This document shows, in pieces, positions 20,565-51,972 of a stretch of DNA of 64,000 bases (positions are counted from its first letter, which is position 1; every line of letters begins with the position of its first letter). The stretch is taken from the NCBI GenBank assembly GCA_963817465.1, contig CAWFOP010000007.1, positions 302,856 to 366,855 on the forward strand. The letters run 5' to 3'. The DNA comes from an uncultured Acidobacteriota bacterium. Lineage in GTDB: Bacteria > Acidobacteriota > Terriglobia > Bryobacterales > UBA6623. The notes below the pieces were generated by a model. That model was not told where the DNA came from, ran no database searches, and saw nothing but the letters and a program-made list of their open reading frames with translations. Both the position numbers and the translations under genes were made by a program.

Positions 20565-20580
20565 TGGCCATCAGAGTGCG
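20565..20580 (+). promoter_or_regulatory. candidate sigma54 -24/-12 promoter P3 (TGGCCATCAGAGTGCG), no obvious intact gene downstream
   Basis: GG-N10-GC with GTGC at -12. The preceding GATTGG is identical to that of P2. Confidence 0.35.
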
Positions 20581-20833: not shown

Positions 20834-20950
20834 ATGATACAAGCTCAATACACAGCGACCTACCACCGGGGCTACTCCAAGACCCTGGGATTCATGCAGT
20901 CACGCGGGATGTCTCTCGGCGTATCCGAGGACTTGGCCCAGGGCGCCAAT
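20834..20950 (+). pseudogene. truncated paralog of the ECF sigma factor (N-terminal ~37 codons only)
   Basis: MIQAQYTATYHRGYSKTLGFMQSRGMSLGVSEDLAQGA aligns with MTRQQYAAAYNHGYPKTIGFMLSRGASRDISEDMAQAA of the 15944 gene. Similarity stops about 50 nt before the convergent GH gene ends. Confidence 0.5.
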
Positions 20951-20995
20951 CCGAAGTCGCACGTCCGGCGCGTACGACTCCTCCTCAATCAGATT

Positions 20996-22171
20996 TCAGG
21001 GCCGGCGCACTATGGCTTCGAGGAATGGCGTTTGGCCTCGTTCCACAGCGACGGCCGCATAAAGGTACATTGCCGCTGACCAACTCTGCCAATCCTGCCC
21101 TCGCGCGACGCCGTCCGAAGCGCCAAACCATTCGTTGAAACCGTAAGGCAACGACGCGTCGCGCCCCCGCCCGACCAGTTCGGTCAGCGCCGCCAGTTTT
21201 TCGCACGCCAGTTCCCGGCGGCCCGCGGCCACTAGCGCGGCGACATAGAACCCGCAGACGAAAGGCCAGACTCCCCCGTTGTGGTATTCGCCCGGCAGGT
21301 TGAAACGCTCGTACCGGGGTCGCCAATCCGGATCTTCGCGTTGGATATAGGGGAATAGGCACGGCGGCAGATCGAGCGCCAGAAAGCCGCGCTCCCGCAG
21401 CGCCTTGCACTCCGCTTCAACCCACGCCACAATCGCCTGCGCTCGCGATGGTGACGCCAAGCCGCTGAGGATCGCCAGGGAGTTGCCCAGAAGGTCGAAT
21501 CGTTCACTATTGCTGACCTTATAAGCCCAAAGGGCATAGTATGGCTTGTTCGCCACGGTGAGCCCCTCATGCACGTGGCGCATCCCCTCCCCGCCGCGAA
21601 TGTCGAGACAATCCAGGATCGCCGCTACCCCCTCAGCCTCCTGGTCCAAACCGTACAGCCTGAGATACATGTAGACCAAGGCGTTCACATACAGCCCGTA
21701 CCCTAGAACCCATTGCTCGTCCCGCCAATCGCTCGTCGGCAGTTGCGCAACGACGATCATGTCGTCCGGACTCTGGTAGCGCATCCACTGCATCGCCAAA
21801 CTCACTGCCGACTCTAGAAAACGAGCTTCTCCCGTTTTGCGCCGATACAGCGCAACGCCGATCAAAAACAGGGGCGTCGTGTCACTCGCGCCGCGGTCGT
21901 CGGGATCGTGCACCAAGGACGGGATATGTCCGAGTCGAGTCTGTGTCACCGCAAGCTTTTCCAGCACGCGCCGCAACGATGCGGTCAGATCCTCGTCCTC
22001 GCTGACAAGAACCCCGAAAGCGGCGATCATGAGGTCTCGCGTGTAAGGTTCCGGATATCCCCACCCAGCGGTCCGAGGCAAGTCCTCGAACGGCCCGTGA
22101 GCGTTGTGCCGCAGCACGTTCAGCGCCGCCTGCTTCATTTCGTCGATCCGCGGTTGAGAGAAGGCGGACAT
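20996..22171 (-). CDS. (alpha/alpha)6-barrel glycoside hydrolase, GH100 (neutral invertase)/amylo-alpha-1,6-glucosidase-like
   Basis: GEYHNGGVWPFVCGFYVAALV, SDWRDEQWVLGYGLYVNALVY and QDWQSWSAAMYLYA are typical of this fold. Specificity is unknown. Confidence 0.6.
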   Translation of the reverse strand: MSAFSQPRIDEMKQAALNVLRHNAHGPFEDLPRTAGWGYPEPYTRDLMIAAFGVLVSEDEDLTASLRRVLEKLAVTQTRLGHIPSLVHDPDDRGASDTTPLFLIGVALYRRKTGEARFLESAVSLAMQWMRYQSPDDMIVVAQLPTSDWRDEQWVLGYGLYVNALVYMYLRLYGLDQEAEGVAAILDCLDIRGGEGMRHVHEGLTVANKPYYALWAYKVSNSERFDLLGNSLAILSGLASPSRAQAIVAWVEAECKALRERGFLALDLPPCLFPYIQREDPDWRPRYERFNLPGEYHNGGVWPFVCGFYVAALVAAGRRELACEKLAALTELVGRGRDASLPYGFNEWFGASDGVARGQDWQSWSAAMYLYAAVAVERGQTPFLEAIVRRP

Positions 22172-33733: not shown

Positions 33734-34639
33734 TTATCCTCGTCCTGCCGGCTTCCGCGGTCCGCCTAGCGCCTCGAAGCCCGAGACTACATCGAACAGT
33801 TCCTCGTCGATACCGCTTTGACGCAGACCGTGGAACGCGGCGTGGAGATTCTCCAGCAGTTCATCGATGTTCTTGTCGGCGCGTTGCATCGCCGCGAGAC
33901 GGCTCGCGTTCTCGCTCGCCAGAGATCCGGCGCACGCCCGGAACAGGGATACGAAAAGATATTCGCGGATGAGCGCCCGCCATGTCGTCGTGCCGCCGCT
34001 CATGACCTCGGGCAAGTTTCTCGTCGGCCAGGGAAGCTCGGCCAACTTACGCCGCCAGTCTTCGTCCAGCGGCAGCAGTCTCTGACTAACGGGCGCATAG
34101 ACCGCCCCGGACATGGGGCGGTTGTAGAAGAGGTGGAGCTCGGTGACTTCGCCCTTGCTGTGGCGCGCCTCGCTCTCGACGAGAATCCGCCCGACGAGCG
34201 GGGTTATGGCCTGGACCGAGTTCGGGACGGGGAACAACCCGATTAGCGGCAGGCCCGTGTCGGCCAGCCGCGCCTGCACGCGCTCCCCGACGGCCCATAC
34301 CTCGGCTCTGGCCGGCAGGGCCGCCAGCGTCTTGACCGCATAGTCGGCCACCACGTCGTTGAACTGCCCCACCAGGCCCTGGTCGGAACCGAATACTACC
34401 GCGCCGATCGCAGCGCCGACTCTTTGCCCACCCTGTTGCGCGGCCAAGGGCGATCGATTGGCCCGGAAACATGCGCCTAAGCCCAACTCGACGGTGCGGT
34501 AGTAGTCGTCCAAGGCGAGCACCGATCTCTCGTATTGACCAATGCTCGAGGCGGCCACGGCCTTCATCGTGCGGACGACCGATTGGAGGTCGCCCGCCGC
34601 GCGGATCTTGCGGCGAAGGGTCGCCGTGGTGTCGCTCAT
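33734..34639 (-). CDS. atpG: N-ATPase gamma subunit
   Basis: TLRRKIRAAGDLQSVVRTMKAVAASS.. and a C-terminus ..ASRLAAMQRADKNIDELLENL. Last gene of the atpDCQRBEFAG order. Confidence 0.85.
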   Translation of the reverse strand: MSDTTATLRRKIRAAGDLQSVVRTMKAVAASSIGQYERSVLALDDYYRTVELGLGACFRANRSPLAAQQGGQRVGAAIGAVVFGSDQGLVGQFNDVVADYAVKTLAALPARAEVWAVGERVQARLADTGLPLIGLFPVPNSVQAITPLVGRILVESEARHSKGEVTELHLFYNRPMSGAVYAPVSQRLLPLDEDWRRKLAELPWPTRNLPEVMSGGTTTWRALIREYLFVSLFRACAGSLASENASRLAAMQRADKNIDELLENLHAAFHGLRQSGIDEELFDVVSGFEALGGPRKPAGRG

Positions 34640-36182
34640 GCCTTCTCCTCGGGCGCGGGTTGAGGCTGGAAGGGGGCAAGCGATTTGCGAGCAATTTCGA
34701 CGATGGCCGCCCGATCCGCATCGCTTAGTGATTCCGCCGTATTCAGTCGTTCGCGCACCTCGGCGGGGATATCCGCCGCCGCCTCGGAGAGGGCGCTCTC
34801 GGCGGCTTTCATGTGGTCAAGCGGCACCTGGTCGAAGAGCTCCGCGGTCAACGCCAGCAGCACGGCGATCTGCGCGGGCACGGAGACGGGAGCGAACTCC
34901 GGCTGCTTGAGGCAGGCGCGGATTCGCCGCCCGTGTTCGATCGTCTTGCGGGAGTCCTGATCCAAGCGCGCGCCGAACCGGGTAAAGGTTTCGAGCTCTT
35001 CAAACTGCGCGTAGGCAAGCTTGAGGTCGCCGGCCACCGCCCGGTAGGCGGCCTTTTGCGCCTTCCCCCCACGCGCGATACCGATCGGCCGACATCGACC
35101 GCGGGCAGCACGCCTAGTTCGAACAGCGACGGCGACAGATAGATCTGTCCGTCGGTGATCGAGATTAAGTTCGTAGGGATGTAGGCGGAGATGTTCTGCG
35201 CTTCGGTCTCGATGATGGGCAGCGCCGTGAGCGAGCCGCCGCCAAGCTCCGCGCGCAAATGGGTGGAGCGTTCGAGAAGGCGCGAGTGGATATAAAAAAT
35301 GTCACCGGGGAAGGCTTCGCGTCCGGGCGGGCGGCGCAGCAGCAAAGAGAGCTCGCGATAGGCGCGGGCGTGCTGCGTGAGGTCGTCGTAAACGATCAGC
35401 ACGTCGCGGCCCTCTTCCATAAACCGCTCGGCGATGCTGGTCGCCGCGTACGGGGCGATATAGGCAAGGCCGGGCGGATCATCGCCTTCGGCCACGACAA
35501 CCACGGTGTACTCCATCGCGCCCTTCTCCTTCAAGTTGGCCACGGCCTTGGCCACGGAGGAAGCGCGCTGCCCGATGGCGCAATAAACACACACGATGTC
35601 CTGGCCCTTCTGGTTCAGGATGGCGTCGATCGCGATGGCGGTTTTGCCCGTTTGCCTGTCGCCCAGAATCAACTCGCGCTGGCCGCGCCCAACGGGAATG
35701 AGCGCGTCAATTACTTTCAGACCTGTCTGAAGCGGCTCCGTGACGGGCGCACGATCCATGATTGGCGCGGCAGGACGTTCGATCGGCAGGCGCCCGCCGG
35801 CGGCCACAGGACCGTTGTCATCGAGCGGTCGGCTGAGCGGATCGATGACGCGTCCGAGCAGACCGCCTCCCACCGCCACATCCATGACCCTGCCCGTGCG
35901 CTCGACTTCATCGCCCGCATGCAGATGCGAATACTCGCCGAGCAGGACGACGTCGACGTCATCCTCATCGACGTTGAAGGCGATGCCGAACACGCCGCCG
36001 GGAAACTGAATCAGCTCCTCAAAGCCCACGCCGGGGAGGCCGGAGACCTTTGCAATGCCGGTCGAGACCGAAGTGATCGTTCCGACCTCGCGCAGCCCAA
36101 GCCGCGGAACAAACCCTTCGCGTACTTGGCGTAAGCCGCTAAACGCGCGGTCGAGATCGTTCTGGAGGCTCTCGGGTTCCAT
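34636..36182 (-). pseudogene. atpA: N-ATPase alpha subunit, frame broken at a G6 run (plus-strand C6 35065-35070) or assembly indel
   Basis: ORF 34848..36182 carries GDRQTGKT (Walker A) up to ..[12 protein letters not shown] and then goes out of frame. ORF 34636..35037 continues ..[17 protein letters not shown].. One additional G restores [19 protein letters not shown]. Confidence 0.85.
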
Positions 36183-36184
36183 GC

Positions 36185-36979
36185 TTATTGGCTCGCCGCC
36201 AAGGGTTCAGGCTCTGGTCCGGACTGCTCTTGCATGAGCCCGTTGACGGCCCGCTCCATCGACGTCAGATAGTCCTCAATGCTCCAGGCCACCTTCTGTC
36301 CGTTGGCGGTGAGCTCGATGCCGCCGATCAAACCGGGCGCTGTCTCGAATTGAACGTGGATCTCGGCGGAGAACATCTCGTTGAGCGCATTCCGTATCGC
36401 CGAGCGCTGCACCGCGGGCAGTTCCAACACGCTGCGCACGATCGCTGGATCAGAAGCGGACGTCAGGGCCTCCCCGAGGCCTTGCTTGGCCTTGTCGTCC
36501 AGCTCCCGCAAGCGGTCCACAAATACGCTGCACAGGCGCTCTTCCAAAGCGGTCGCGGCAAGATCGGCCAGGACTTTGCGCGAGATGGCAAACACTTCTT
36601 GCTGCGCCCGGAGGGCAATGGCTTGGTGTAGATCCCGCTGCTCGTTCTCCAATCTCTCCCGCCGTTTGGAGCTGAGCGCATCCGCCGCGCTCCGCGCCTC
36701 ATCGAGGAGACGGCCGCGTTCGGCCTGCGCCTCGTCCGTCGCTTGACTCAGCATTGCGGCGCGCTGCTTGTCGAACTCTTCGTTCTTGCTCCGGAACGCG
36801 TCCCGTTCCTTCTTGGCTTCCGCCTTCTTCGCGTCGGCTTCCGCGAGCTCCGCCGCAATTCGTTTCTCTCGCTCGTCGATGGCCTGCAGGATCGGCTTGT
36901 AGAGAAACCGCTTCATCAACCACACCAAGATGAGGAAGTTGAGCGCCTGCGCGGCGACCGTGAACCAATCCACTAACAT
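36185..36979 (-). CDS. atpF: N-ATPase subunit b with delta/OSCP-like C-terminal extension
   Basis: N-terminal TM ([18 protein letters not shown]), a long charged helix, and a C-terminus ..[23 protein letters not shown] that resembles delta. The operon has no separate delta gene. Confidence 0.8.
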
Positions 36980-36983
36980 GGGC

Positions 36984-37265
36984 TCACTTGCCCGCCGCTT
37001 GGGCGATGGCGTGATTCCAGAATGGGTTGGCGAAGATAAGAATCATCGACACCACGAAGCAGTAGATGGCGGTGGACTCAATCATCGCCAGGCCCACGAA
37101 CAAGGTTCGCGTAATTGTGGCGGAAGCGTCCGGCTGCTGCGCGAGGGAACTCAGAGCCGACGCGACCGCTTTGCCCTCCGCCAAGGCGGGCGCCATGGTG
37201 CCGAAACCGGTGGTAAGGCCGGCGATGACAATCGACGCCACTGCGATCATAGTTAAGCTATCCAC
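36984..37265 (-). CDS. atpE: N-ATPase c subunit with complete Na+-binding signature
   Basis: ..AEGKAVASALSSLAQQPDASATITRTLFVGLAMIESTAIYCFVVSMILIFANPF. The start is either GTG 37265 or ATG 37250. Confidence 0.85.
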   Translation of the reverse strand: MDSLTMIAVASIVIAGLTTGFGTMAPALAEGKAVASALSSLAQQPDASATITRTLFVGLAMIESTAIYCFVVSMILIFANPFWNHAIAQAAGK

Positions 37266-37296
37266 AATATTTAATTTCCTCTCAGTTTCTCGGAGG

Positions 37297-37998
37297 TTAC
37301 GCCGCAACGCCTTCCGCGGCTTCAGCCTTGGGTTTACTCACCCTCGTGGCGGCGGCGATATACACCGCGGCTAGAATGCTGAAAATGTAGGCCTGCACCA
37401 TGCCGGTAAGCAGACCGAGCAGGGTCATGACGATCGGGAATACGAACGGCGTAATCGTGAGCAGGATGGCGATAATCATCGCTCCGCTCATCATGTTGCC
37501 GAACAAGCGGACGGCCAGAGCCAGGGTGCGCGACAGCTCGCTGATGATATTGAACGGCAGCATGATTAACGTCGGCTGCACATAGGATCCAAGATAGCCG
37601 CCCAATCCACGCTCTTCGATCCCGAACAACGGCACGGCGACAAATACGCTCAGCGCGAGCGCGACCGTCGTCGAAAGCGACCCTGTCGGCGGCTCGTAGC
37701 CCGGAATGACCGTAGCGAGGCTCGCCGCCGCGACGAACAGAAAGAGCGTGCCTAAAAAGCCGAGATACTTGTGCGGCTCACTCAATCCCACTTCTTTAAT
37801 TTGTTTCACGATGCCCGTGACGACGATCTCCAACAAGTTCTGCCAGCGGGAGCGTTCCAAACCCTTGGCCAGTTTGCGCGTAATCAGCCACGACCCAATG
37901 ACCAAAACGAGCATCAGCGCCCAGGTGAACGCGATAGTGGCGTTGAGTTTGAGAAACCCCAGGCGCCAAAAGATCATCTCGTCAGGGCTAAGGCGCAT
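37297..37998 (-). CDS. atpB: N-ATPase a subunit
   Basis: ELSRTLALAVRLFGNMMSG contains the essential Arg of subunit a. There are multiple TM segments. Confidence 0.85.
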   Translation of the reverse strand: MRLSPDEMIFWRLGFLKLNATIAFTWALMLVLVIGSWLITRKLAKGLERSRWQNLLEIVVTGIVKQIKEVGLSEPHKYLGFLGTLFLFVAAASLATVIPGYEPPTGSLSTTVALALSVFVAVPLFGIEERGLGGYLGSYVQPTLIMLPFNIISELSRTLALAVRLFGNMMSGAMIIAILLTITPFVFPIVMTLLGLLTGMVQAYIFSILAAVYIAAATRVSKPKAEAAEGVAA

Positions 37999-38302
37999 GG
38001 CTGCCCTCCGAAACCTGAGCGGGGCGCGTCTGCACCGGCGACCGCGTGAACCATGTCACGACCAAGCGCGCCGCGATAAACCCCAGCAGGCATGCCAGCA
38101 GCGTCCTCCAACCGTCGCTAGCCACGAGGTAGAAGCCCGCCAGCACGACGCTCGTGCGCAGCAACAGGCTGCCCAAAAACCACAGCGCCGCATGTTCGGA
38201 CGGCAATCCCTTGCGAATCGTCCACCACAGGCCGCCGAAGAAAATCACGCCGAGCAAGACGCCCGTCGCCAAGGCCGGCAAGAGGCTCGTAGTCTCAGCC
38301 AT
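37988..38302 (-). CDS. atpR: N-ATPase accessory membrane protein AtpR
   Basis: MAETTSLLPALATGVLLGVIFFGGLWWTIRKG.., about 104 aa with 3 TM segments. It occupies the R position of atpDCQRBEFAG. Confidence 0.7.
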   Translation of the reverse strand: MAETTSLLPALATGVLLGVIFFGGLWWTIRKGLPSEHAALWFLGSLLLRTSVVLAGFYLVASDGWRTLLACLLGFIAARLVVTWFTRSPVQTRPAQVSEGSHAP

Positions 38303-38625
38303 TACCGTTCTCCTGTTCCTCTCGCATTTCCTTTTCTTCCTTCGCCACCCAATGCCAGGCGTTGAAACAACCGACCGCAAGGCCGACGATCAGCAGGGCC
38401 AGCGTCCACGAATGGCGCGATGGGTAGCGACCATCAAGCCAGATGCCAAGCGCCGCGCCAAGCAGCGTTGGAATCGTCACTGACCACCCGATAAGCCCCA
38501 TCATTCCCAAGCCGAACCAGACTCCCTGCGTCGGGTTGCGCCGCGCCTTGAGCTTACGCTCCGCCTTCGCGCCGACCTGCTCGCCGAGGGTAGGTCCGCC
38601 TTGCGGGGGTCTGCTGGGCGACCGC

Positions 38626-38633
<8 letters not shown>
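38295..38633 (-). CDS. atpQ: N-ATPase accessory membrane protein AtpQ (AtpZ/AtpI-like)
   Basis: Internal ATG 38633. ..GVWFGLGMMGLIGWSVTIPTLLGAALGIWLD..WTLALLIVGLAVGCFNAW.. Overlaps its neighbours by 8 nt on each side. Confidence 0.7.
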
Positions 38634-41385
<2,752 letters not shown>

Positions 41386-41519
41386 GCGCTTTTCTCTTGC
41401 GCGGGTAGAGGAACCTCGTCCCCGTCGTCTTGCCGGCGTTCGATCACCCGCGGCGAAGGTTGAAACCAAAACCTCGACCGTACAGTGATCCACGTACAGT
41501 GATCCAGACGTGTCTGAGC

Positions 41520-43898
41520 TTATTCACGGTTCAGATCCCACTTCCAATTTCGGATCTCCGGCAGGTCCTGCCCATGCTTGTCGATGTACCGCTTGTGTTC
41601 GATGAGCTTGTCCTCGAGATTCTGCTTTAGCGCGGCGCCCTTTTGGCCTGTCTGCGGCAAGCGGTTGATGGCGTCCATCGCCAGGTGGAAGCGGTCCAGG
41701 TCATTCAGCACGGTCATATCGAAGGGAGTGGTGATGGTCCCTTCCTCCTTGTAGCCGCGGACGTGCATATGGTCGTGGTTGGTGCGGCGGTAGGTCAGCC
41801 GGTGGATCAACCACGGGTAAGCATGGAAGGCGAAGATGATCGGCTTGTTCTTGGTGAAAAGCGCGTCGAACGCCTCGTCGCTCAATCCGTGCGGGTGCTC
41901 GGCTTGCGGCTGCAGCTTCATCAGGTCGACGACGTTGACGACGCGAACTCTTAGCTCGGGCAGATGCTCGCGCAGGATGGATACGGCGGCGAGCGTCTCG
42001 ACAGTGGGCACGTCGCCGCAACAGGCCATCACCACATCCGGCTCCAAGCCTTGATCATTGCTGGCCCATTTCCAGACGCCGATGCCCTCGGTACAGTGCT
42101 TGACGGCGGCGTCCATCGTCAACCACTGCGGCGCTTGGTACTTGCCCGCGATGACGACGTTGACGTAGTGGCGGCTGCGCAAGCAGTGATCCCAGACCGA
42201 GAGCAGACAGTTGGCGTCCGGCGGAAGATAGACGCGCACGACGGAGGCCTTCTTGTTCACGACGTGATCGATGAAGCCGGGGTCCTGATGCGTAAAGCCG
42301 TTGTGCATTTGCTGCCAAACATGGGATGCCAGCAGGTAGTTCAGCGATGCGATCTTCCGCCGCCAGGGCAGTTCCGCCGTGACCTTCAGCCATTTGGCGT
42401 GCTGATTGAACATCGAGTCGATGATGTGAATGAACGCCTCGTAGCAGTTGAAGAGCCCGTGCCGGCCAGTGAGCAGGTAGCCTTCCAGCCAGCCTTCGCA
42501 TTGATGCTCGCTCAGCATCTCGATGACGCGACCTTGCAGAGCGAGGAACTCATCGTTGTCCTGCGTTCGTGCGTCCCACTGCCGGCTGGTCTCGTCGAAC
42601 ACGGCGTTCAGGCGATTCGATAGCGTTTCGTCGGGCCCGAAGATCCGGAAATTCCGCTGCTCCTGGTTGAGCTTCACCACGTCGCGCAGGAATACGCCGA
42701 GCTCGTGCGTGTCCGCCGCGTTAACGGACCCGGGCGACGGCACCTCGACCGCGTATTCGCGAAAGTCCGGCATGACCAGGTCACGCAGCAGCAGCCCGCC
42801 GTTGGCGTGGGGATTGGCGCCCATGCGGCGATCACCCTGCGGCGCGAGCTCCGCCAGCTCCGGTTTCAACCGGCCCTGCTCATCGAAGAGCTCCTCCGGG
42901 CGGTAGCTTCGCAGCCAGTCCTCCAAAATCCGGAGGTGCTCCGGGTGGGCGGCGGGATCGGAAAGCGGCACTTGGTGGGCGCGGAAAGTCCCCTCGATTT
43001 GAACGCCGTCGACCCATTTGGGTCCCGTCCAACCCTTCGGCGATTTGAGGACGATCATCGGCCAGCGAGGGCGCATCGTGTTGCCGTCCGTGCGAGCGCT
43101 GCGCTGGATCCGCTTGATCTCTTCCACCACACGGTCGAGGGTCGCGGCCATCGCCTCGTGCATCAGCTCGGGGTCGTCGCCCTCGACGTAGTAAGGGATC
43201 CAGCCGCAACCTCGCAAGCACTGGTCCAGTTCCTCCGGCTCGATGCGTGCGAAGACGGTCGGGTTCGCAATCTTGTATCCGTTCAGGTGCAAGATCGGCA
43301 GCACGGCGCCGTCGGTCGCCGCGTCCAGAAACTTGTTGGAATGCCACGCCGTAGCCAGCGGACCCGTCTCCGCTTCGCCGTCGCCCACGACGCAGGCGAC
43401 GATCAGATCAGGGTTGTCGAAAACGGCCCCGAACGAATGGCTGAGCGAATAGCCTAGTTCCCCGCCCTCGTGGATCGAGCCGGGACACTCCGGCGAGGCG
43501 TGGCTGGGAATTCCTCCGGGAAACGAGAACTGAAGAAAGAGCTTCTGAAGCCCGGCCTCATCCTGGCTGATGTCGGGATAGATCTCGCTGTACGTGCCCT
43601 CCAGGTAAGTGTTGCCCACGACGGCCGGACCGCCGTGCCCGGGGCCGCAGACGTAGATCATGTCGAGGTCGTATTTCTTGATGACCCGGTTCAAATGCAC
43701 GTAGATGAAGTTCTGCCCGGGGGTGGTGCCCCAGTGGCCGAGCAGCATGTGCTTGATATCCGTGAGCGCCAGCGGCCTCTTCAGCAGCGGATTGGCGAAC
43801 AGATAGATCTGTCCGACCGACAAATAGTTCGCCGCGCGCCAATAGGCGTCTATTTTGCTTAACAATTCCGGGCTCAGTGTGTTTGCTTCTGTTTCCAT
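41520..43898 (-). CDS. xfp: xylulose-5-P/fructose-6-P phosphoketolase
   Basis: [18 protein letters not shown].., [38 protein letters not shown]. Confidence 0.9.
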
Positions 43899-43960
43899 GT
43901 TTCGCAATCCATTGCCTCTTTATCGCTTGCTGTCGTATCACTCGCGTTCCGACGGCGCCG

Positions 43961-45889
43961 TCATAGATCGTGGATCACTTGAGGAGGGAAGGCGGCCCGC
44001 AAGGCGTTCAGCACGGCCAGAACGTCGATGACTTCCTGAGTGATGGCGCCGCTTACCGGACTTAAGTGACCGCCGGCTGCGAAGACCATGCCGATGACGC
44101 TCAGCGCCATGCCGCCCACCGCGCTCTGCAACGCGATGACTCGCATCCGGCGGCTGATGTGCATGAACTCGTCCACCTTCTCGAGGGAGTTGTCCATCAC
44201 CACGACTCCCGCCGCTTCGGCGGTGACATCGCTGTTCTGTCCGATCGCCATACCGACGGTGGCGGCCATCATTGCCGGAGCGTCGTTGATGCCGTCCCCC
44301 ACGTAAAGGGTCTTGGCGGCGGCTGTCTCCTCCCGCACGATGGCGAGCTTCTCTTCGGGACTCTTCTCAGCGTAGACGTCGGTGATGCCTACCTGCTCGG
44401 CGAGGTAGCGCACCTCCGACTCGCGATCCCCCGACACGATCAGCACGCGTGAGAACTGGTGTTTTGGACCCAGATGGCTGACGAAGGAGCGGCTCTCCGC
44501 CCGCGGCGCGTCACGGAAGCGCAAGGCCGCCGCATAGCGTTGATCGATCGTCACCACGCACTCGAGCCCGCCGGCGACAGGCGGAAGCTGATCGAGACCC
44601 GCGACCTGTTGAGCGCCAAGCCGGCCGCGGCTGGTGACTTGCACCTGGCGGCCGGAAACGGTTCCGCGCAGACCCTGGCCGGGCGGCTCGCTCACCTCGG
44701 CGGCCTCCGGGAGCGGAATCCCGTCCGCCTTCGCCGCCGCCAGAATGGCGTGCGCCAGCGGATGTTTCGAGTAGCGCTCCAGACCCGCCACGAGGGTCAG
44801 CACTTCCTTTTGGGCGAAGCCCGGGGCGACGAGTTGTTCGGTCAGCTTCGGCGCGCCGTAAGTCAGCGTTCCGGTCTTGTCGAAAATCGCGGTGCGACAC
44901 TCGGCGATCCGCTCGAGCGCCACCGGGCTCTTGACGATGATCGCCCGGCGGGCGCAAAGGGAAATCGAGCCGATGATGGCGATCGGTATCGCGATCAGCA
45001 GCGGGCATGGCGTGGCGATCACCAGCACAGCCAGGAAGCGAATGGATTCTCCGCTGAAGGCCCAGGCGAGCAGCGGCTACCGTCAGCGCCACCGGAGTAT
45101 AGATCGCGCCCAAGCGATCTCCCAGACGCCGCAACTGCGGTCGCTTCGCCTCGGACTCGCGCATGACTTCCATGATCTTTGCGTAGCGCGAATCGGCGGC
45201 GCGCTTGGTCGTGCGGATGGTCAGAGCCGATTCTCCGTTGATCGCGCCCGAGATCACCGTCGAGCCGGAGGTCTTGGTAATCTCGAACGGCTCGCCCGTC
45301 AGGTAGGATTCATCCATCACGCCGTGTCCCTCGATCACCACGCCGTCCACCGGGCAGATGTCATGCGGGTAAATCACGAGCGTGTCGCCCACGGCGACCT
45401 CGTGCAGCGCCACATCCACGATTTCCGATTCCCGTTTCCGATGGGCGATCGAAGGCATCCGCTTTGCTAGCGCGGCCAGCACCGAAGAGGCGCTGCGCAA
45501 CGCGTAACTCTCCAGCGCTTCACCTCCCGAGAGCATCAGGACGATAATCGAGCCGGCCAGGTATTCGCCCAGCAGGATGGAAGTGACGATGGAAATGCCG
45601 CCCAGCAGATCGGAACCGAATTCCCGCTTCAGGAGCTTCCGAAGCAGGTCATACAGAAGCGGCGGACCGCCGAGAGCGAGCGTCGCCAGCAAGGGGATCC
45701 GGTAAGCGCCCGGACTGCTGTGGAAGCCGAAGCGGAGCGCCACGATGCAAAAGCGATGGCGACGATCGAAAACGCCGCGATGACCGTGGTCTTGCGGCGC
45801 CGCAGACCGAACGGCGGCTCTTGACTCAACTGTGTCTCCGCCCGCTTCTCCGAAGCGACGGCGGGGGGATAGTCCAAGGTGGCCTTCAT
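43961..45889 (-). pseudogene. P1B-type (heavy-metal) P-type ATPase lacking N-terminal metal-binding domain; two frame breaks (~45744-45746 and ~45068-45075) or assembly indels
   Basis: Three consecutive ORFs (45629..45889, 44511..45743, 43961..45028) together read as one about 640-aa ATPase. Motifs: [19 protein letters not shown] (TPCP at the CPx position), [19 protein letters not shown]. Confidence 0.8.
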
Positions 45890-45966
45890 GCCGAATCTCC
45901 GCTTTGCAAGCGGTCAGGAGCGACGACGGCGGAGCCTCGAACTGAATTCATCGCCGGTCGTTAGCT

Positions 45967-46122
45967 TCAGTGGAACACGCCAAGCATATAGGCGATGAGT
46001 AGGATCACCAATACTGTGCCCACTCCTGTGCCGGCCCCGCCGCTGGGACCCCAACGGCTATGGCCGTAGTACCCTCCGCCGACGCCAAACAGCAACACCA
46101 AAATGACGATGAGTAAGAGCAT
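45967..46122 (-). CDS. 51-aa membrane protein (DUF3309-like)
   Basis: MLLLIVILVLLFGVGGGYYGHSRWGPSGGAGTGVGTVLVILLIAYMLGVFH. Internal ATG of the track ORF, with AGAAGGAA upstream. Confidence 0.6.
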   Translation of the reverse strand: MLLLIVILVLLFGVGGGYYGHSRWGPSGGAGTGVGTVLVILLIAYMLGVFH

Positions 46123-46247
46123 TGTCCGTTCCTTCTTTCTTCTGAGTCCTATAGCCCCGGTTGGCTTCTTTGAACTCAGCCCTTCCGGCGTGCCGCCCAA
46201 GAGCCTGCCGCGCAAGGCCGACGCTCGCCGTCAGTTCACCAGTGGGA

Positions 46248-46263
46248 AGCACGCCGCGTACCA
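46248..46263 (-). promoter_or_regulatory. candidate sigma54 -24/-12 promoter P4 (TGGTACGCGGCGTGCT)
   Basis: The minus strand reads TGGTAC-GCGGC-GTGCT, about 125 nt upstream of the DUF3309 start. Confidence 0.45.
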
Positions 46264-46328
46264 TCTTGCATGTCCCCTGGATTCGCAGGATTCACAGGGA
46301 TCCGGAGCGACCCTGATTGCCCGACACC

Positions 46329-46362
46329 TGACCGAGACTGGCCATATGACCAAATACGGTCA
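46329..46362. promoter_or_regulatory. tandem dyad pair D4: TGACC-GAGACT-GGCCA / TGACC-AAATAC-GGTCA
   Basis: Perfect dyad at 46347-46362, overlapping the ackA stop codon. A 9/10 copy at 46329-46344 is offset by 18 bp. Confidence 0.55.
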
Positions 46363-47583
46363 CTTGTCTTGGAGCGAGGCAGCCTCGAGGAAACGACAGA
46401 CTTCCCGGGCAATCATCAGTTCTTCATCGGTACGGATCACACGGACGGCAACCCTGCTTGCGCCGGTGGAAATCAGCGCTGAGCCCGCGGCGTTCCTGGC
46501 TTCGTCGAGCTCGATACCGAGAAATCCCAAACCGCTGCATACGCGGGCTCGCACTTCCACGGAGTTTTCGCCGATGCCGCCTGCGAACACCAGCGTCTCC
46601 ACTCCGCCGAGGACGGCCGCGAACGCCCCGATCCATTTGCGGGTTTGGTAGCAGAACAGCTCGACCGCCTCGGCGGCGCGGACATCGCTGTTCTGCCGCT
46701 CGATCAAATCGCGCATGTCGGAGCTGGTTTCTGAAACCCCCAGCAGGCCGGACTCATGATTGATCAAATGGTTGAACTGCTCGGGCGACAGATTCTCGGA
46801 GCGCATCATGTACCAGGCGACGCCGGGATCCAAGTCGCCGGGTCGCGTGCCCATCGGTAATCCGGCTGCCGGAGTGAATCCCATGCTGGTTTCGATGCTC
46901 TTGCCGCCTTGGACCGCCGCCAAGCTTGCTCCACCGCCAAGGTGAGCCAGGATCACCCTGCCTTGAGCCGTCTTCGCATCGGCCACGCGAGCCAGTTCGT
47001 CCATGAGGTAGGCATAGGACAGGCCGTGGAAACCGTATCGTTGAACGCCCTGCGCGTCGAACCGGCGGGGGATCGGCAAGAGCCGGGCCACACGCGGCAT
47101 GCCGCTGTGAAACGCCGTGTCAAAGCAGGCGACTTGAGGCAGCTTCGGCTGACGCTGCCGGAACGCCTCGATCAGCAGGATCTCCTGAGGCAGATGGTCC
47201 GGGTCATAGGGACTGATGCGACGCAGCTCCTCTAACAGGTCCTGCGTCACACGCTCGGGCCGGGTATAGCTCATGCCGTGGACCACGCGGTGTCCCACGG
47301 CCCTGACCGAAGCAAAATCAATCCGGCGTTCGAGCCAATCGATGAGGAAATCCGCCGCCGAGCTGTGATCGGAGGCTTCCAGGCTGCAACTGTCCCGCCG
47401 GTTCCCAGCCGCATCGCTGAATGTCAGATTCGTGCCGGGCAAGCCGATGCGGTCAACCTTCCCATGAAGATGTCGTTGGGGCGCCTCCTCCGTCTCATAC
47501 AGCGCGAACTTGATGCTCGACGAGCCGCCGTTGATCGTCAGGACCAATGGTTTGCCTGGTTTCGCCGATGATGTTTCCATCAT
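46360..47583 (-). CDS. ackA: acetate kinase
   Basis: VLTINGGSSSIKFALY, RVVHGM, GFHGLSY, ..VFAGGIGEN.. ATG 47583 overlaps the HAD stop (ATGA). Confidence 0.9.
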   Translation of the reverse strand: MMETSSAKPGKPLVLTINGGSSSIKFALYETEEAPQRHLHGKVDRIGLPGTNLTFSDAAGNRRDSCSLEASDHSSAADFLIDWLERRIDFASVRAVGHRVVHGMSYTRPERVTQDLLEELRRISPYDPDHLPQEILLIEAFRQRQPKLPQVACFDTAFHSGMPRVARLLPIPRRFDAQGVQRYGFHGLSYAYLMDELARVADAKTAQGRVILAHLGGGASLAAVQGGKSIETSMGFTPAAGLPMGTRPGDLDPGVAWYMMRSENLSPEQFNHLINHESGLLGVSETSSDMRDLIERQNSDVRAAEAVELFCYQTRKWIGAFAAVLGGVETLVFAGGIGENSVEVRARVCSGLGFLGIELDEARNAAGSALISTGASRVAVRVIRTDEELMIAREVCRFLEAASLQDK

Positions 47584-48194
47584 TCCCGAACCTTCAATCC
47601 GAACGAGGCCAGCTTTGAGCGGGTTGCCTTGTAATCCGTGTGAAGGATGCTGCGAATCCCCAAACCTTGCGCGACCTGGACGAACAGGGCGGTGTTTTCG
47701 ATATAGACCACCTGCCGGGCCGGCGTCTGAGCGAGGTCCAGCGCAAGCCGAAAGATGTCCGTGTCGGGTTTGCGCATCCGGACGAAGCAGGAGGAAACAA
47801 AACAATCCACAAACTTGTCGAGCTTGAACTTGCGAATCCGATACGCATTCAGCTCGCGCGCTTCATTGCTGACCACGACGATCTTGAGCCCGTGCCGGAC
47901 CTTGAGCTGAGCGCACATCTCGATCATCTCGGGGTAAGGTTTCGATTGCGCGAACAGGAACCGCTCGAACTGAGCCCTGGTAAACGGTCGCTTTTGGTTG
48001 AAGACCACGCGGCCCAGATATTCTTCCAGGGTGAGCTTTCCCTCCTCGTAGACGGCGAAGTTCAAGTGGTGCCGATCTTCCATCTCGGCCCACTCCAGCT
48101 TGAACTTCGTCGCCGCCCGTTTACGGGCGTGATGGTCCCAGCCGTTGGTGAGCAGTACGCCGCCTATATCCAGAAACAACGCTGTGATCGGCAT
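47580..48194 (-). CDS. HAD-superfamily hydrolase (subfamily IA-like)
   Basis: ALFLDIGGVLLTNGW (motif I variant DxG), VVSNEAR (motif II), ..RKPDTDIF.. (motif III region). Confidence 0.7.
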   Translation of the reverse strand: MPITALFLDIGGVLLTNGWDHHARKRAATKFKLEWAEMEDRHHLNFAVYEEGKLTLEEYLGRVVFNQKRPFTRAQFERFLFAQSKPYPEMIEMCAQLKVRHGLKIVVVSNEARELNAYRIRKFKLDKFVDCFVSSCFVRMRKPDTDIFRLALDLAQTPARQVVYIENTALFVQVAQGLGIRSILHTDYKATRSKLASFGLKVRE

Positions 48195-48406
48195 TGCTAG
48201 GCCGCCACTTCCTGCACCGGACGCAGGCAAGCAATGACGTCCTCACGGCTCATCATGCCGACCACCTGAGCGGTCGCCTATTATTCGGAGCCGGTTCACA
48301 TCCGGTCGGGTCAAAAGTGTTGTCATGTCGCAGTGTCTCTCCTTGCTAGCGGTGGCGGTGACCGCCGCCGCGGCGGACCAACGGGCCTTGGCCCTTGGAA
48401 GCCCAA

Positions 48407-50950
48407 TCAACGCTGCCACACGATTCGCGCGGTTTCCAGGGGGACGGCAACCCCGTCAAAGTGCGGTATCACGCGCGCTGTGTAGTCGGAAGCCGGACGA
48501 GTCGCGGGCGCCTGTGCGCGATAAGCGTAGCCGCCGTACGCCCCCGCGAGTTTATGGACGCGCTGCATCTCCCGCCGCTCTGGACCGCCGCCGTTAACGC
48601 CGTCGGCATAGAGCTCCACCCGCACCGCATTCGGGTCGAGACCGTCGAGATAGACCTGAACCTCGAAGACGTGCCGCTCGCCATTGGTCTCGACCGTGAG
48701 CTCGCCAAAGCGCACAGCAGGCCACTCCTTTTCCACGGCGTGCCGCCAATCGACCATTTGTCCGCCCTCCGCTGCTCCGGCCGCGCGCTTGCGGTACGTT
48801 TCCGCAGCCGGGAGGTAGTGCTGCTCGGTGTATTCGCGCACCGTGCGGTCGGCGGAGAAGCGGGGCGTCAATTGCGCCATGCTCTCGCGCATCCGCTGGA
48901 TCCATGCCGTGGGAATACCCTGCTCGTCGCGGGTGTAGAACTCGGGGATCACCTCCCGCTCGAGCAGGTTGTAGAGCGCGTCGGCCTCGGCCGCGTCCCA
49001 CTCAGGATCGTCGCCGTGCTCTTGGCCGTCCCCAAAGGCCCACCCGACTTCGGGCGTGTAGGCCTCCGCCCACCAGCCGTCTAACTCCGACAGGTTGAGG
49101 CCCCCGTTGACGAGCACCTTCATCCCGCTCGTCCCGCTGGCTTCCCAGGGCCGCCGCGGCGTGTTGATCCAGACGTCGACCCCTTGCACCAAGTGCTCGG
49201 TCAACAGCATGTCGTAGTCACTGAGAAAGATCGCATGCGGGCGCGTCTCGGGCCGCCGGATGAAATGCATCCATTCCTGAATCAGGGCCTGTCCAGCCTC
49301 GTCCGCCGGATGCGCCTTGCCCGCGATGATGAGCTGCACCGGCCGCTGGGGATTGCTCAACAGTCGAAGCAGTCGCTCAGGGTCGTGGAGCAGCAGGTTC
49401 GGTCTCTTATAGCTCGCGAAGCGGCGTGCAAAGCCCAGCGTCAGCGCGTTGGGATCAAACAGACGTTCAGCGGCTTCGGACACCTCGGGCGGCGCGCCGG
49501 CGGCGGTCAGGTCCAGCGACAATCGTTGGCGAGCGTACTCCACAAGCGACTCGCTGGCGTCGCTGCGAAGCTGCCATAGCCTGCCGTCGGAGACCCGGCG
49601 AATGTCCTGACCCAGAGTCTCCGTCGTCCCGAGCCAACGATCCTTTCCACTGCTTTGCGTCCAAAGATCGTCGGCCGGCGCCGAGTCCCAGGTGGGCATG
49701 TGGACTCCGTTGGTGACGTGTCCGATCGGGATTTCGTCCTCCGGCCAGTGCGGAAACAGAGGCAGAAAGAGGCGCCGGCTCACCTGCCCGTGCAAGCGGC
49801 TCACCCCGTTCACCGCCCCGCTCCCACGGATGGCCAGATGCGCCATGTTGAAAGGCTCGGAAGAGTCGGTCGGGTTCCGGCGGCCCAGGGCCAGCAAATC
49901 GTGGACGGCAATGCCGAGCTTCTCTTCGGCATACCCCCCAAGATATTGCTCGATGAGAGCGGGCGCAAAGCGGTCAAAACCGGCGGCCACCGCAGTGTGG
50001 GTCGTGAAGAGATTGCCCGCTCGCGTGATCGCCATGGCGACCTCGAAGGGCTGCTTTGTCTCGTCCATGAAAGTGCGGGCTCGCTCCAACACGGCGAACG
50101 CCGCATGTCCTTCATTCAGGTGACAGATTTCCGGCTCTATGCCGAGGGCGCGGAGCAGCCGCCATCCGCCGATCCCAAGGAGCAGCTCTTGCTTGAGACG
50201 CAGCTCCGGCCCGCCGCCATAGAGCTCGCTCGTAATCCCCCGATGAGCGGGGAAGTTCGCAGCGTCATTGCTGTCAAGCAGGTAGAGCTTCACCCGGCCG
50301 ACCCGGACCTGCCAGGCGCGCAGCCAGACCGAGTATCCAGGCAACTCGATCTCCAACCGCAGCCACTCTCCGTTCGGCTGGCGCAGCGGCGTGATCGGCA
50401 GTTGTCCGGGATCGTTGTAGGGGAAGAGCGCCTGCTGCGCGCCCTTCTTGTCGATTACCTGGCGGAAGTAGCCCTGTTGATAGAGCAGTCCCACGCCGAC
50501 CACCGGCACACCCAGATCGCTCGCGGCCTTGAGTTGATCGCCGGCGACGTTGCCAAGCCCGCCCGAGTAGATGGGCAGCGCTTCACTCAACATGAACTCC
50601 ATGCTGAAGTAAGCGGCGCAGGTTAGGGCCGTCCCCTGATGGCTCTTCTGAAACCAAGCGGGCGCCGCGGCGGCTTGCCGGCTGGCTTCGATTAGCCCAT
50701 CCACCTTCTTGCGGAAGACAGGGTCGGCCAACACGCTCTCGATGCGGTTCCGCGAGACCGTCTGCAGGACGACCCAAGGGTTGTGCGTGATTGACCACAA
50801 TTCGGGATCGAGCTTCCGCCACACCTCGTCGGTCGCATGATTCCAGGACCAGCGCATGTCGAGGGCAAGTTCCGCCAGGGAATCGAAGCCGTCGATTTCG
50901 GTCGGTAGAAGGTTGTAGATCGGGTGGCTGACGCGCGTCGGTTTGCTCAT
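48407..50950 (-). CDS. glgP: alpha-glucan (glycogen/maltodextrin) phosphorylase, GlgP family with DUF3417-type N-terminus
   Basis: LAELALDMRWSWNHATDEVW.., YFSMEFML..PIYSGGLGNVAGD, EASGTSGMKVLVNGG (PLP-Lys region). Start taken at MSKPT (ATG 50950). Confidence 0.85.
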   Translation of the reverse strand: MSKPTRVSHPIYNLLPTEIDGFDSLAELALDMRWSWNHATDEVWRKLDPELWSITHNPWVVLQTVSRNRIESVLADPVFRKKVDGLIEASRQAAAAPAWFQKSHQGTALTCAAYFSMEFMLSEALPIYSGGLGNVAGDQLKAASDLGVPVVGVGLLYQQGYFRQVIDKKGAQQALFPYNDPGQLPITPLRQPNGEWLRLEIELPGYSVWLRAWQVRVGRVKLYLLDSNDAANFPAHRGITSELYGGGPELRLKQELLLGIGGWRLLRALGIEPEICHLNEGHAAFAVLERARTFMDETKQPFEVAMAITRAGNLFTTHTAVAAGFDRFAPALIEQYLGGYAEEKLGIAVHDLLALGRRNPTDSSEPFNMAHLAIRGSGAVNGVSRLHGQVSRRLFLPLFPHWPEDEIPIGHVTNGVHMPTWDSAPADDLWTQSSGKDRWLGTTETLGQDIRRVSDGRLWQLRSDASESLVEYARQRLSLDLTAAGAPPEVSEAAERLFDPNALTLGFARRFASYKRPNLLLHDPERLLRLLSNPQRPVQLIIAGKAHPADEAGQALIQEWMHFIRRPETRPHAIFLSDYDMLLTEHLVQGVDVWINTPRRPWEASGTSGMKVLVNGGLNLSELDGWWAEAYTPEVGWAFGDGQEHGDDPEWDAAEADALYNLLEREVIPEFYTRDEQGIPTAWIQRMRESMAQLTPRFSADRTVREYTEQHYLPAAETYRKRAAGAAEGGQMVDWRHAVEKEWPAVRFGELTVETNGERHVFEVQVYLDGLDPNAVRVELYADGVNGGGPERREMQRVHKLAGAYGGYAYRAQAPATRPASDYTARVIPHFDGVAVPLETARIVWQR

Positions 50951-51099
50951 GTTTTCACACGCCTGGTTTTCCAGCCGGTGTCGCCGGAGAAGGAATGCAC
51001 GCGCCGTGCCAAACCGCGGAACCGGCAATCCGGGGCGCGGGAAGCGTGCGGCCGCTCGACTGGTAGACTGAAGGGTCCCGGCGAATCCGTTTTTGAGCA

Positions 51100-51972
51100 A
51101 TGTCCTCCAATGCCCCTAACTCCAGGCAAGCCCGGCCTGGTGATCATGATCACGGTCGCCTCGAACGTATCGAGAAGATTTTGTCCGAGGCCGGCGGCGT
51201 CTCCCGGCGCCGCGCCGCGGAACTGATTCGCGCGCAGCAAGTGACGATCAACGGCGAAGCGGCTGCGCTCGGCGCGAAGGTCAATCTCGACTCCGACAGC
51301 ATCCGCATCGATGGCGTCCGTATCGCGGCCCCTATCAAGGACTATCACTATATTTTGCTCAACAAGCCTGCGGGATACGTCACGACCCGCTCGGACCCGG
51401 AGAAGCGCTCCACGGTCATGGATTTGATTCCGGCGCGCATGCGAAGAAAAGTCGTTCCCGTGGGTCGCCTCGACTATCACACCGAAGGTCTCCTGCTGCT
51501 GAGCGACGATGGCGACTTCAGCCAGCACGTGATGCATCCCAGGTACGGCTGCAAGAAAACCTATGAGGTCAAGGTCAAAGGCGTCCCCGCCGAGGCGGCG
51601 ATCGTGAAGCTGGCCCGGGGGATCACCCTATTCGGAAAACGGACGAGGCCGGTTTCGATCTCCGCAATGAAGGCGCCGCGAGGGCCTCGCAAGATTCTCA
51701 ACAATTCCTGGTGGTCCGTCATTCTGACGGAAGGGCGAACGCGGCAAATCCGGGAGATGTTTTTTCGCATCGGTCATCCGGTCATGCGTCTCCGAAGAGT
51801 GGCGATTGGGAGTCTGAAGGACCGTCGTCTTCCGTCCGGCGCTTGGCGTGACCTGACTGAGCACGAAATCCGATCGCTGCTTCAAATAGGAGACGCCGCC
51901 GAAGATCGCGCTCGTCCAGCCCCGGCTCGGCCCAGGACGTTGAAGGCGGGACGGACGAGCCGGAGCCGCTAG
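51100..51972 (+). CDS. rluB: 23S rRNA pseudouridine synthase (RsuA/RluB family)
   Basis: S4 domain (RIEKILSEAGGVSRRRAAELI), catalytic PVGRLDYHTEGLLLLSDDG, and an Arg-rich tail. Confidence 0.85.
   Translation: MSSNAPNSRQARPGDHDHGRLERIEKILSEAGGVSRRRAAELIRAQQVTINGEAAALGAKVNLDSDSIRIDGVRIAAPIKDYHYILLNKPAGYVTTRSDPEKRSTVMDLIPARMRRKVVPVGRLDYHTEGLLLLSDDGDFSQHVMHPRYGCKKTYEVKVKGVPAEAAIVKLARGITLFGKRTRPVSISAMKAPRGPRKILNNSWWSVILTEGRTRQIREMFFRIGHPVMRLRRVAIGSLKDRRLPSGAWRDLTEHEIRSLLQIGDAAEDRARPAPARPRTLKAGRTSRSR

Follow-up and report, generated by a model that had tools for sequence, protein, structure and literature searches.

A double-dyad, sigma-54-type promoter module ahead of a gene string that leads into an N-ATPase operon in an uncultured acidobacterium

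Introduction

With which genes is an N-type ATPase switched on, and what does it do for the cell? Its cellular role is "largely unexplored" (PMC5376962), and its adaptive advantage is unclear (PMC12342949). The question is raised by a 64-kb stretch of DNA from an uncultured bacterium of the Bryobacterales (Acidobacteriota; contig CAWFOP010000007.1), here called the window. On its minus strand, the genes of a small DUF3309 membrane protein, a P1B-type ATPase, a phosphoketolase (xfp), and a polyphosphate kinase-type enzyme (ppk2) lead into an N-ATPase operon, and the whole string is preceded by a double dyad, D4, and a sigma-54-type promoter, P4. Coordinates count from the first letter of the window, and L-numbers denote contigs of related loci.

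A preliminary description of this DNA reasoned that, if the string is one unit, a signal received by a sigma-54 enhancer-binding protein (EBP) would co-induce the metal pump, the phosphoketolase, the polyphosphate enzyme, and the ion pump. Our analysis leads us to favour, with moderate confidence, a reading in which D4/P4 belongs to a small lineage-specific regulon of the EBP encoded at 10860–12980 and drives the string through the N-ATPase operon.

Results

A double dyad is paired with a sigma-54-type promoter

The module ahead of the string and its four counterparts in the window are as follows.

46329–46362, no strand assigned: D4, a 34-bp double dyad, TGACCGTATTTGGTCA-TA-TGGCCAGTCTCGGTCA (minus-strand reading), the presumed EBP binding site (upstream activating sequence, UAS)
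46248–46263, minus strand: P4, a sigma-54-type -24/-12 promoter, TGGTACGCGGCGTGCT (GG-N10-GC), 83 nt from the UAS centre
10826–10859 and 10759–10774: D0 and P0 (P0 on the minus strand), upstream of Ysc84/PG-binding and OmpA-like genes
13108–13141 and 13266–13281: D1 and P1 (P1 on the plus strand), upstream of the genes for a THIVI_2564-like 63-aa membrane protein and a ricin-M48 peptidase
16589–16622 and 16743–16758: D2 and P2 (P2 on the plus strand), upstream of the gene at 16838–17608 (257 aa)
20419–20452 and 20565–20580: D3 and P3 (P3 on the plus strand), facing the region 20590–21000

The pattern TGACS-N6-SGTCA-NN-TGACS-N6-SGTCA, searched with up to three mismatches, has five matches in the window, compared with 0.04 in shuffled sequence. 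The matches start at 10826, 13108, 16589, 20419, and 46329, and are evidently the D0 to D4 of the preliminary description. P4 reads TGGTAC-N5-GTGC, which differs from TGGCAC-N5-TTGC at two positions. The pattern TGGY-N7-KTGC occurs at just 17 sites in the 64 kb, both strands included. Each of the five dyad centres has such a site 68–142 nt away on the gene-facing side (5/5), a neighbour that a random centre has with a probability of 0.03, indicating that the pairing is non-random. The fifth dyad/promoter module placed upstream of the DUF3309 gene is therefore borne out, and it is the sole such module in or ahead of the string. A generic repeat search of the window did not show the modules. Both the doubled TGACS-N6-SGTCA motif and the GTGC (not TTGC) of the -12 element look lineage-specific.

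D4 overlaps the stop codon of ackA. It might instead be a terminator or structural hairpin that ends ackA, with GG-N10-GC a chance match. In favour of this explanation, the canonical sigma-54 consensus is not enriched window-wide (52 found vs 60.5 expected). The terminator scan also reports a weak hairpin at 46347–46362, although for the plus strand, the wrong one for ackA. The only informative sigma-54 pattern is the lineage-adapted one paired with the dyads. In the dyad itself, arms of only 5 bp enclose 6-nt spacers that are not conserved, and the palindromes always occur in pairs at a distance of 18 bp; such a build is typical of a site bound by a dimer of dimers and not of a hairpin in RNA. 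The other four copies precede genes and do not mark their ends, all five are paired with TGGY-N7-KTGC, and the element is placed 30 nt past ackA in the related locus L161 and stands without any ackA in L162. We consider a terminator highly improbable.

A second dyad, CCCTG-N15-CAGGG, lies between the UAS and the promoter (46275–46299, no strand assigned). It was rejected as D4 or as a conserved element, since its arms read CCTCGT/ACGAGG in L161 and the segment is largely deleted in L162.

Two other repeats lie near the plus-strand modules. A perfect dyad with a 10-bp stem, CAGCAGGCCT-TCCG-AGGCCTGCTG, occupies 16713–16736, 6 nt upstream of P2. A direct repeat of 116 nt with 71% identity joins 15988–16103 and 20827–20942, the latter copy being a fragment, just downstream of D3/P3, that is paralogous to the sigma-70-like gene at 15749–16507.

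Thirteen co-directional genes end in an N-ATPase operon

The genes of the string are as follows.

45967–46122, minus strand: DUF3309 small membrane protein, 51 aa (PF11752, 25.4 bits vs cutoff 22.3)
43961–45889, minus strand: P1B-type (heavy-metal) P-type ATPase (E1-E2_ATPase, PF00122, and Hydrolase, PF00702, on separate pieces of the open reading frame)
41520–43898, minus strand: xfp, phosphoketolase (XFP_N, XFP, XFP_C; NF003619, 1460 bits)
40516–41385, minus strand: ppk2, class-I PPK2, an ADP-polyphosphate phosphotransferase (single PPK2 domain, PF03976; equivalog NF042973, 504.7 bits vs cutoff 450)
39005–40501, minus strand: atpD, N-ATPase beta subunit (TIGR03305, 884.5 bits vs cutoff 752)
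38626–39027, minus strand: atpC (Pfam ATP-synt_DE_N)
38295–38633, minus strand: atpQ (ATPase_gene1, PF09527, 60.6 bits)
37988–38302, minus strand: atpR (AtpR, PF12966, 102.5 bits)
37297–37998, minus strand: atpB (Pfam ATP-synt_A)
36984–37265, minus strand: atpE, c subunit (ATP-synt_C; TIGR03322, 155.7 bits vs cutoff 130.85)
36185–36979, minus strand: atpF, b-delta fusion (ATP-synt_B and OSCP)
34636–36182, minus strand: atpA (L161 orthologue; frame split in a G6 run)
33734–34639, minus strand: atpG (L161 orthologue)

From 46122 down to 33734, the 13 genes run unbroken over ~12.4 kb, or 12.6 kb with the dyad. The spacers are 77 nt (DUF3309/P1B-ATPase), 62 nt (P1B-ATPase/xfp), 134 nt (xfp/ppk2), and 14 nt (ppk2/atpD), and the atp genes that follow either overlap (by 23, 8, 8, 11, and 4 nt) or lie 31, 4, and 2 nt apart. 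Gene coordinates were fixed by mapping the orthologous L161 proteins back onto the window; the open reading frame (ORF) listing and direct reading agree with them, and the order and spacing given in the preliminary description reproduce exactly. Pfam and NCBIfam agree with every gene identity in the string.

DUF3309 has orthologues of 51 aa at the equivalent position in L161, L162, and L165. The phosphoketolase is 92% identical to that of L161 and has an alternative TTG start at 43907. The start of atpD, 14 nt past the ppk2 stop codon, is preceded by a GGAG ribosome-binding site. From atpD to atpG the order is D-C-Q-R-B-E-F-A-G, without atpH, whose delta subunit is joined to b. By gene order, the presence of AtpR and AtpQ, and family models, the predicted pump operon is a bona fide N-ATPase operon. 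On reading its sequence, the c subunit carries the motif Q...ESTxxY; the ESTxxY pattern is linked to Na+ binding in the literature (PMC12342949).

The module is conserved in close relatives

Close relatives were found by protein search with PPK2, and their contigs were compared with the window. Their gene orders are as follows.

L161 (ppk2 92% identical): ackA, UAS and promoter, DUF302, a hypothetical gene, DUF3309, P1B-ATPase, xfp, DUF2254, His_Phos_1, ppk2, 13 nt, atpD to atpG
L162: UAS and promoter, DUF3309, then a string like that of L161
L165: inverted UAS and promoter, DUF3185, DUF3309, P1B-ATPase, xfp, DUF2254, His_Phos_1, ppk2, PMI, a PMM-like gene, GH130, atpD to atpG
L163: the module heads a 13-kb string with LemA, M48 peptidase, ackA, xfp, His_Phos_1, and ppk2, followed by PMI, PMM-like, and GH130 genes

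In a three-way alignment of the window, L161, and L162, the UAS block ATGACCG.A..TGGTCA.ATG and the promoter block CAAGATGG..C...GCGTGC.TC.CA are conserved, and the flanking and intervening DNA is divergent. The distance between UAS and promoter is ~11 nt shorter in L162. This is one helical turn, as would be expected if the helix face matters. Among 165 loci, the double dyad is confined to the close relatives, with a few other matches inside the atpB coding sequence. A blastn search of the intergenic DNA of the window against all loci gave no match, and a regular-expression search upstream of the P1B-ATPase gene in 60 metagenome loci found neither a sigma-54 site nor DUF3309, indicating that conservation of the regulatory DNA does not extend past the closest relatives. 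These comparisons support D4/P4 as a real module of enhancer and predicted sigma-54-type promoter, conserved in the lineage. Neither in the window nor in L161, L162, or L165 does the string contain a second UAS module. Gene junctions in the close relatives are even tighter than in the window, and the largest gap between DUF3309 and atpG in L161 is 68 nt.

A candidate activator is flanked by the same dyads

The candidate cognate activator is encoded in the same window.

10860–12980, minus strand: sigma-54 EBP, PAS-PAS-AAA+-HTH_8 by Pfam, ~706 aa

The gene sits between D0 and D1. Its product falls below every NCBIfam equivalog cutoff, the best being FhlA (396 bits vs 830). Orthologues 68–74% identical occur in L166–L168, where they are flanked by the same double dyad and share the neighbourhood THIVI_2564 small protein, EBP, Ysc84/PG-binding, OmpA, and DAC; homologues of the EBP are labelled Bryobacterales. 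The flanking copies tie the motif to the EBP. Two more copies stand ahead of groES-groEL in L168 (16380–16413) and, just past atpG in L162, ahead of the gene of a giant GH94 glycan phosphorylase (17934–17967). The groES-groEL copy suggests a general-stress regulon, and both copies together hint at a general stress and carbohydrate-reserve programme.

The design resembles the EBP/sigma-54 regulons of NtrC, FhlA, NorR, and PspF, with which it shares the AAA+ sigma-54 interaction domain, the C-terminal HTH_8, tandem palindromes 70–140 nt from GG-N10-GC, and a regulator gene flanked by its own sites. It differs in an EBP that lies below the equivalog cutoffs, in the motif TGACS-N6-SGTCA, and in GTGC at -12. 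Apart from its new recognition motif and unassigned EBP, the module follows the ordinary logic of EBP/sigma-54 control.

The gaps of the string hold no terminator and record two deletions

In agreement with the preliminary description, which saw no intrinsic terminator in the gaps, the terminator scan finds no minus-strand terminator-like site in any gap of the string, and folding of the gap RNAs (z from +0.54 to -0.47) and of the leader upstream of DUF3309 gives nothing beyond what shuffled sequence gives. Rfam RNA and tRNA scans of the string gave no match. Two segments have a traceable origin.

41386–41519, minus strand: xfp-ppk2 gap with a deletion scar, junction at ~41445–41452
46123–46247, minus strand: predicted 5' leader of DUF3309, no Rfam family, fold z -1.18

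The xfp-ppk2 gap fuses the sequence that follows xfp, as in L162, to the last ~65 nt of His_Phos_1. The 3' end of His_Phos_1 overlaps the start of ppk2 in L161, L163, and L165, and both DUF2254 and His_Phos_1 are present between xfp and ppk2 in L161, L162, and L165. As judged from these alignments, the 134-nt gap is the scar of a ~2-kb deletion that removed DUF2254 and His_Phos_1, and its DNA was coding in the ancestor. Beside the deletion junction lies a tandem duplication of 14 nt that is specific to the window, TGGATCACTGTACG x2 at 41479–41506.

The 3' 70–90 nt of the leader (46123–46215) match the end of the DUF3185 gene and the following spacer of L165, with 83% column identity. By this match, the leader carries the remnant of a lost DUF3185 gene.

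Two genes of the string are frameshifted as assembled

The identities given earlier to the P1B-ATPase and atpA stand by hidden Markov models, but the genes do not form single intact frames. In the ORF listing the P1B-ATPase is split into three pieces in two frames. Placed against an intact planctomycete homologue, ~70 intact metagenomic homologues, and L161, its breaks are 2 extra nt at ~45744–45748 and 1 extra nt at 45074. In atpA, 1 base is missing (a -1 frameshift) in the G6 run 35065–35070. Both genes are intact in L161 (651 and 515 aa, respectively); in this assembly, intact frames are found neither for the P1B-ATPase nor, owing to atpA, for the N-ATPase operon as a whole. It is thus uncertain whether a working pump would be co-induced in this genome.

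The breaks may be real, with P1B-ATPase and N-ATPase alpha pseudogenes in a decaying island whose promoter survives without a working pump; this explanation is not exclusive of the others, and the loss of DUF2254 and His_Phos_1 and of DUF3185 would belong to the same erosion. Decay is in line with the number of breaks, three over 12.4 kb, of which two fall within a single 1.9-kb gene and outside long homopolymers, and with the two lineage-specific deletions. It is also in line with the lack of any break in ~9.5 kb of other window genes, each aligned with relatives in a single frame, but at the same error rate zero breaks would be expected ~10% of the time. Assembly error is favoured by the position of the atpA break in a G6 run, a classic site of consensus error, and by frame breaks in other cluster genes of sister long-contig assemblies (P-ATPase and xfp in L162, many cluster genes in L165). 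The remaining 11 genes of the string are intact and 74–95% identical to those of L161, and both deletions keep the downstream start codons and ribosome-binding sites. The evidence points both ways, and either assembly error or mutation may account for the three breaks; decay of the island as a whole seems to us rather unlikely.

The P1B-ATPase lacks an N-terminal metal-binding domain, has TPCP in a membrane helix and a visible QEVID, and carries the phosphorylation motif FDKTGTLT in its 43961–45028 piece. Its intact orthologue scores 481 bits with TIGR01525 (cutoff 346), and its relatives in PDB are CopA, ZntA, and CadA. TPCP in a membrane helix presumably means subgroup P1B-5; a literature search yielded no usable definition of this subgroup. 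The gene adjoins xfp with gaps of 19–139 nt in the metagenome contigs L104, L107, L124, and L145. TPCP-type P1B-ATPases 82–91% identical in amino acids (L081–L160) are abundant in peat, soil, and freshwater metagenomes, where they often lie between ackA and xfp, and the homologue in L156 bears an N-terminal CxxxH...CPxC metal-binding extension.

One transcript or several

The genes of the string are co-directional, joined by short gaps or overlaps, and free of internal terminators, as in an operon. The ppk2-atpD gap is 13–14 nt in the window, L161, and L162, too short to hold an intergenic promoter for the N-ATPase operon itself. The preliminary description had noted this lack of room in the window. 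A single transcript of the whole 12.6-kb string is thus plausible on the gene layout.

The string may instead comprise several transcription units. P4 would then drive DUF3309 and the P1B-ATPase, perhaps also xfp, and ppk2 with the N-ATPase operon, or the N-ATPase operon alone, would be transcribed from a promoter hidden in the deletion scar or within coding sequence upstream; the shared direction of the genes would then reflect their packing in a mobile island and not a single operon. Elsewhere, N-ATPase operons are self-contained and mobile (PMC2881411). Most of the 80 closest beta-subunit loci (L001–L080; the sub-clade nearest the window, not all N-ATPases) have neither ppk2 nor xfp directly upstream of the operon. 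Close relatives differ in the genes that they have between P4 and atpD, which shows modular assembly, and a scan for sigma-70-type promoters is uninformative for this phylum. Against such a division stand the conserved 13–14-nt junction and, in L165, a GH130 gene that meets atpD with hardly any gap. The 134-nt gap, as former coding DNA, contains no promoter-like or sigma-54-like site, and there is no second UAS module within the string. We regard several units as possible, though the poorer account of the locus.

A number of observations weigh against transcription of the whole string from an EBP-activated P4. Three genes separate ppk2 from atpD in L165, and the same genes follow ppk2 in L163. 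A sigma-54-like site lies upstream of atpD in just 2 of 77 related N-ATPase loci, indicating that sigma-54 control is no general property of N-ATPase operons, which elsewhere are driven differently and stand alone. At 12.6 kb the transcript would be long for a sigma-54 promoter, and promoters inside the coding sequence of xfp or ppk2 are possible. P1 and P3 score weakly against the canonical sigma-54 consensus, rpoN is not within the 64-kb window, and we infer from proximity and co-conservation only that EBP 10860–12980 activates at the double dyads. Finally, the P1B-ATPase and atpA are the two genes that are frameshifted as assembled.

Conservation of the ppk2-atpD adjacency was a check proposed in the preliminary description. 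The adjacency holds in L161 and L162; it does not hold in L165, probably not in L163, and usually not in other phyla. In L006, a locus from Sumerlaeota, ppk2 precedes atpD at a distance of ~620 nt, and in at least eight other loci it directly follows atpG. The functional linkage of ppk2 and the N-ATPase is robust, but the exact junction is not. Of the proposed co-induction as one unit, the module, the string, and the conserved junctions hold up; the continuous transcript is only plausible, and two of its genes are frameshifted.

Genes for stored polymers recur beside related N-ATPase operons

The 80 loci are distributed among Desulfobacterota, Acidobacteriota, Verrucomicrobiota, Planctomycetota, Nitrospirota, Chloroflexota, Pseudomonadota, Sumerlaeota, Gemmatimonadota, and others, with beta subunits 78–89% identical to that of the window, a level that fits a laterally mobile operon. 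Neighbours were called by clustering the flanking ORFs, with Pfam checks; the counts, made without a formal control set, are as follows (of 80 loci).

xfp: 18 full-length, 23 including fragments; 76–86% identical to the xfp of the window
P1B-ATPase: 14
ackA: 10–14
DUF2254: 8
ppk2: 5–11
glgP-like phosphorylase, class-I aldolase, PRC-barrel: 5 each
PMM-like HAD, Na+/H+ exchanger: 4 each
BON, PhaC, pyruvate kinase, phosphoglucose isomerase (PGI), transaldolase, His_Phos_1, GH130: 3 each

Nearly all recurrent neighbours lie on the same strand as the N-ATPase operon. The identity of xfp across phyla suggests co-transfer. Within the literature library searched, no paper links the N-ATPase with phosphoketolase or PPK2. 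In Nitrospira marina, N-ATPase subunits rise at low O2 (PMC8115632), which is independent support for N-ATPase induction under energy limitation.

A glycogen phosphorylase-like unit lies upstream

The genes immediately upstream of D4 form a second co-directional unit.

46360–51011, minus strand: glgP-like alpha-glucan phosphorylase (48407–50950), HAD (47580–48194), and ackA (46360–47583)

This unit has a sigma-54-like site of its own, TGGCACGGCGCGTGCA at 50996–51011, which is a better match and has no double dyad. A perfect 14-bp palindrome, GTGATCATGATCAC, lies ~135 nt upstream of that site (51140–51153) and might serve another activator. Farther upstream, 57036–59996 encodes a PSCyt1/PSCyt2/PSD1 (planctomycete-type cytochrome) protein. 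Taken with the Bryobacterales labels of the EBP homologues, this protein suggests a soil bacterium of Acidobacteriota or PVC type.

Discussion

How would the string work if P4 reads through to atpG? The PAS-domain EBP would sense an energy, redox, or stress cue, bind the 34-bp double palindrome as a pair of dimers, and contact the sigma-54 polymerase at TGGTAC-N5-GTGC, ~83 nt away. The transcript would most likely run through DUF3309, P1B-ATPase, phosphoketolase, and PPK2 into the nine-gene N-ATPase operon, to atpG. Xfp would form acetyl phosphate from fructose 6-phosphate or xylulose 5-phosphate, with sugar phosphates supplied by the neighbouring glycogen phosphorylase. AckA, which is encoded upstream here and inside the string in L163, would convert acetyl phosphate to ATP, and PPK2 would make ATP from polyphosphate and ADP. 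By hydrolysing part of this ATP, the N-ATPase would export Na+ (as predicted) or H+, and the membrane would stay energised and the ions balanced. The trigger would be stress or energy limitation, under which ATP is made without respiration. The inducing signal and this physiology are, like the read-through, inferred.

Tentatively, the neighbourhoods suggest a broader reading, in which the N-ATPase is the energy sink of a mobile, redox-neutral module that turns reserves into membrane potential in more than ten phyla, and which here has been captured by a general-stress regulon with a PAS sensor and sigma-54. Glycogen, through GlgP, would feed phosphoketolase and AckA to give ATP, with aldolase, PGI, and transaldolase rearranging carbon. 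Polyphosphate would likewise give ATP, by way of PPK2. When cells do not respire, are starved, or lack oxygen, the N-ATPase would spend the ATP on maintaining a gradient of Na+ or H+.

Three known systems bear comparison. The pump operon matches the N-ATPase operon atpDCQRBEFAG (Dibrova, Galperin, Mulkidjanian 2010; PMC2881411), of which the c-ring of Burkholderia pseudomallei has been characterised (Schulz et al. 2017; PMC5376962), in gene order, in AtpR and AtpQ, in the b-delta fusion, in the scores for the alternate F1F0 models, and in the ESTxxY Na+ motif. It differs in its place, only 14 nt past ppk2 as the last part of a string headed by a sigma-54-type promoter, and in an atpA that is frameshifted in the assembly. 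An N-ATPase is expected always to be a second enzyme, next to a canonical F- or A-type ATP synthase of the same genome. Published accounts treat the N-ATPase as a self-contained insertion and discuss salt and pH tolerance, not catabolism of reserve polymers.

The closest functional analogue of the string is the low-oxygen-activated (lxa) locus of Burkholderia cenocepacia (Sass et al. 2013; PMC3721108), a large block switched on by energy or oxygen limitation through a short palindrome at many intergenic points. The lxa locus contains acetate kinase and storage-polymer genes, and PhaC and BON genes recur beside related N-ATPase loci. Its motif is FNR/Anr-like (TGA-N6-TCA), whereas a sigma-54 UAS and a -24/-12 site are found here. 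In the lxa paper we found no phosphoketolase or polyphosphate, and its sole mention of an ATP synthase is the downregulated F-type BCAL0029-0037 (PMC3721108). The likeness is one of function, not of membership.

The third system is the Xfp-AckA pathway (the bifid shunt, or 'non-oxidative glycolysis'). Here, too, xfp and ackA are linked, and related loci add class-I aldolase, PGI, and transaldolase, its carbon-rearrangement enzymes. In this locus the two genes are also physically tied to PPK2, to a P1B-ATPase, and to a rotary pump that consumes ATP, a tie that is absent from the operons described for the pathway. What is new is the regulatory and physical coupling of the N-ATPase to ATP generation from reserve polymers, in this genome and across phyla.

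The previously undescribed enhancer motif, TGACS-N6-SGTCA x2, together with its probable PAS activator, could help to trace a stress regulon through uncultured bacteria of soil and peat. For the N-ATPase itself, the locus offers a testable role, that of a pump co-regulated and co-inherited with non-respiratory ATP makers that use stored glycogen and polyphosphate, and the neighbour pattern of the 80 loci supports this proposal of a pump fed by reserve polymers.

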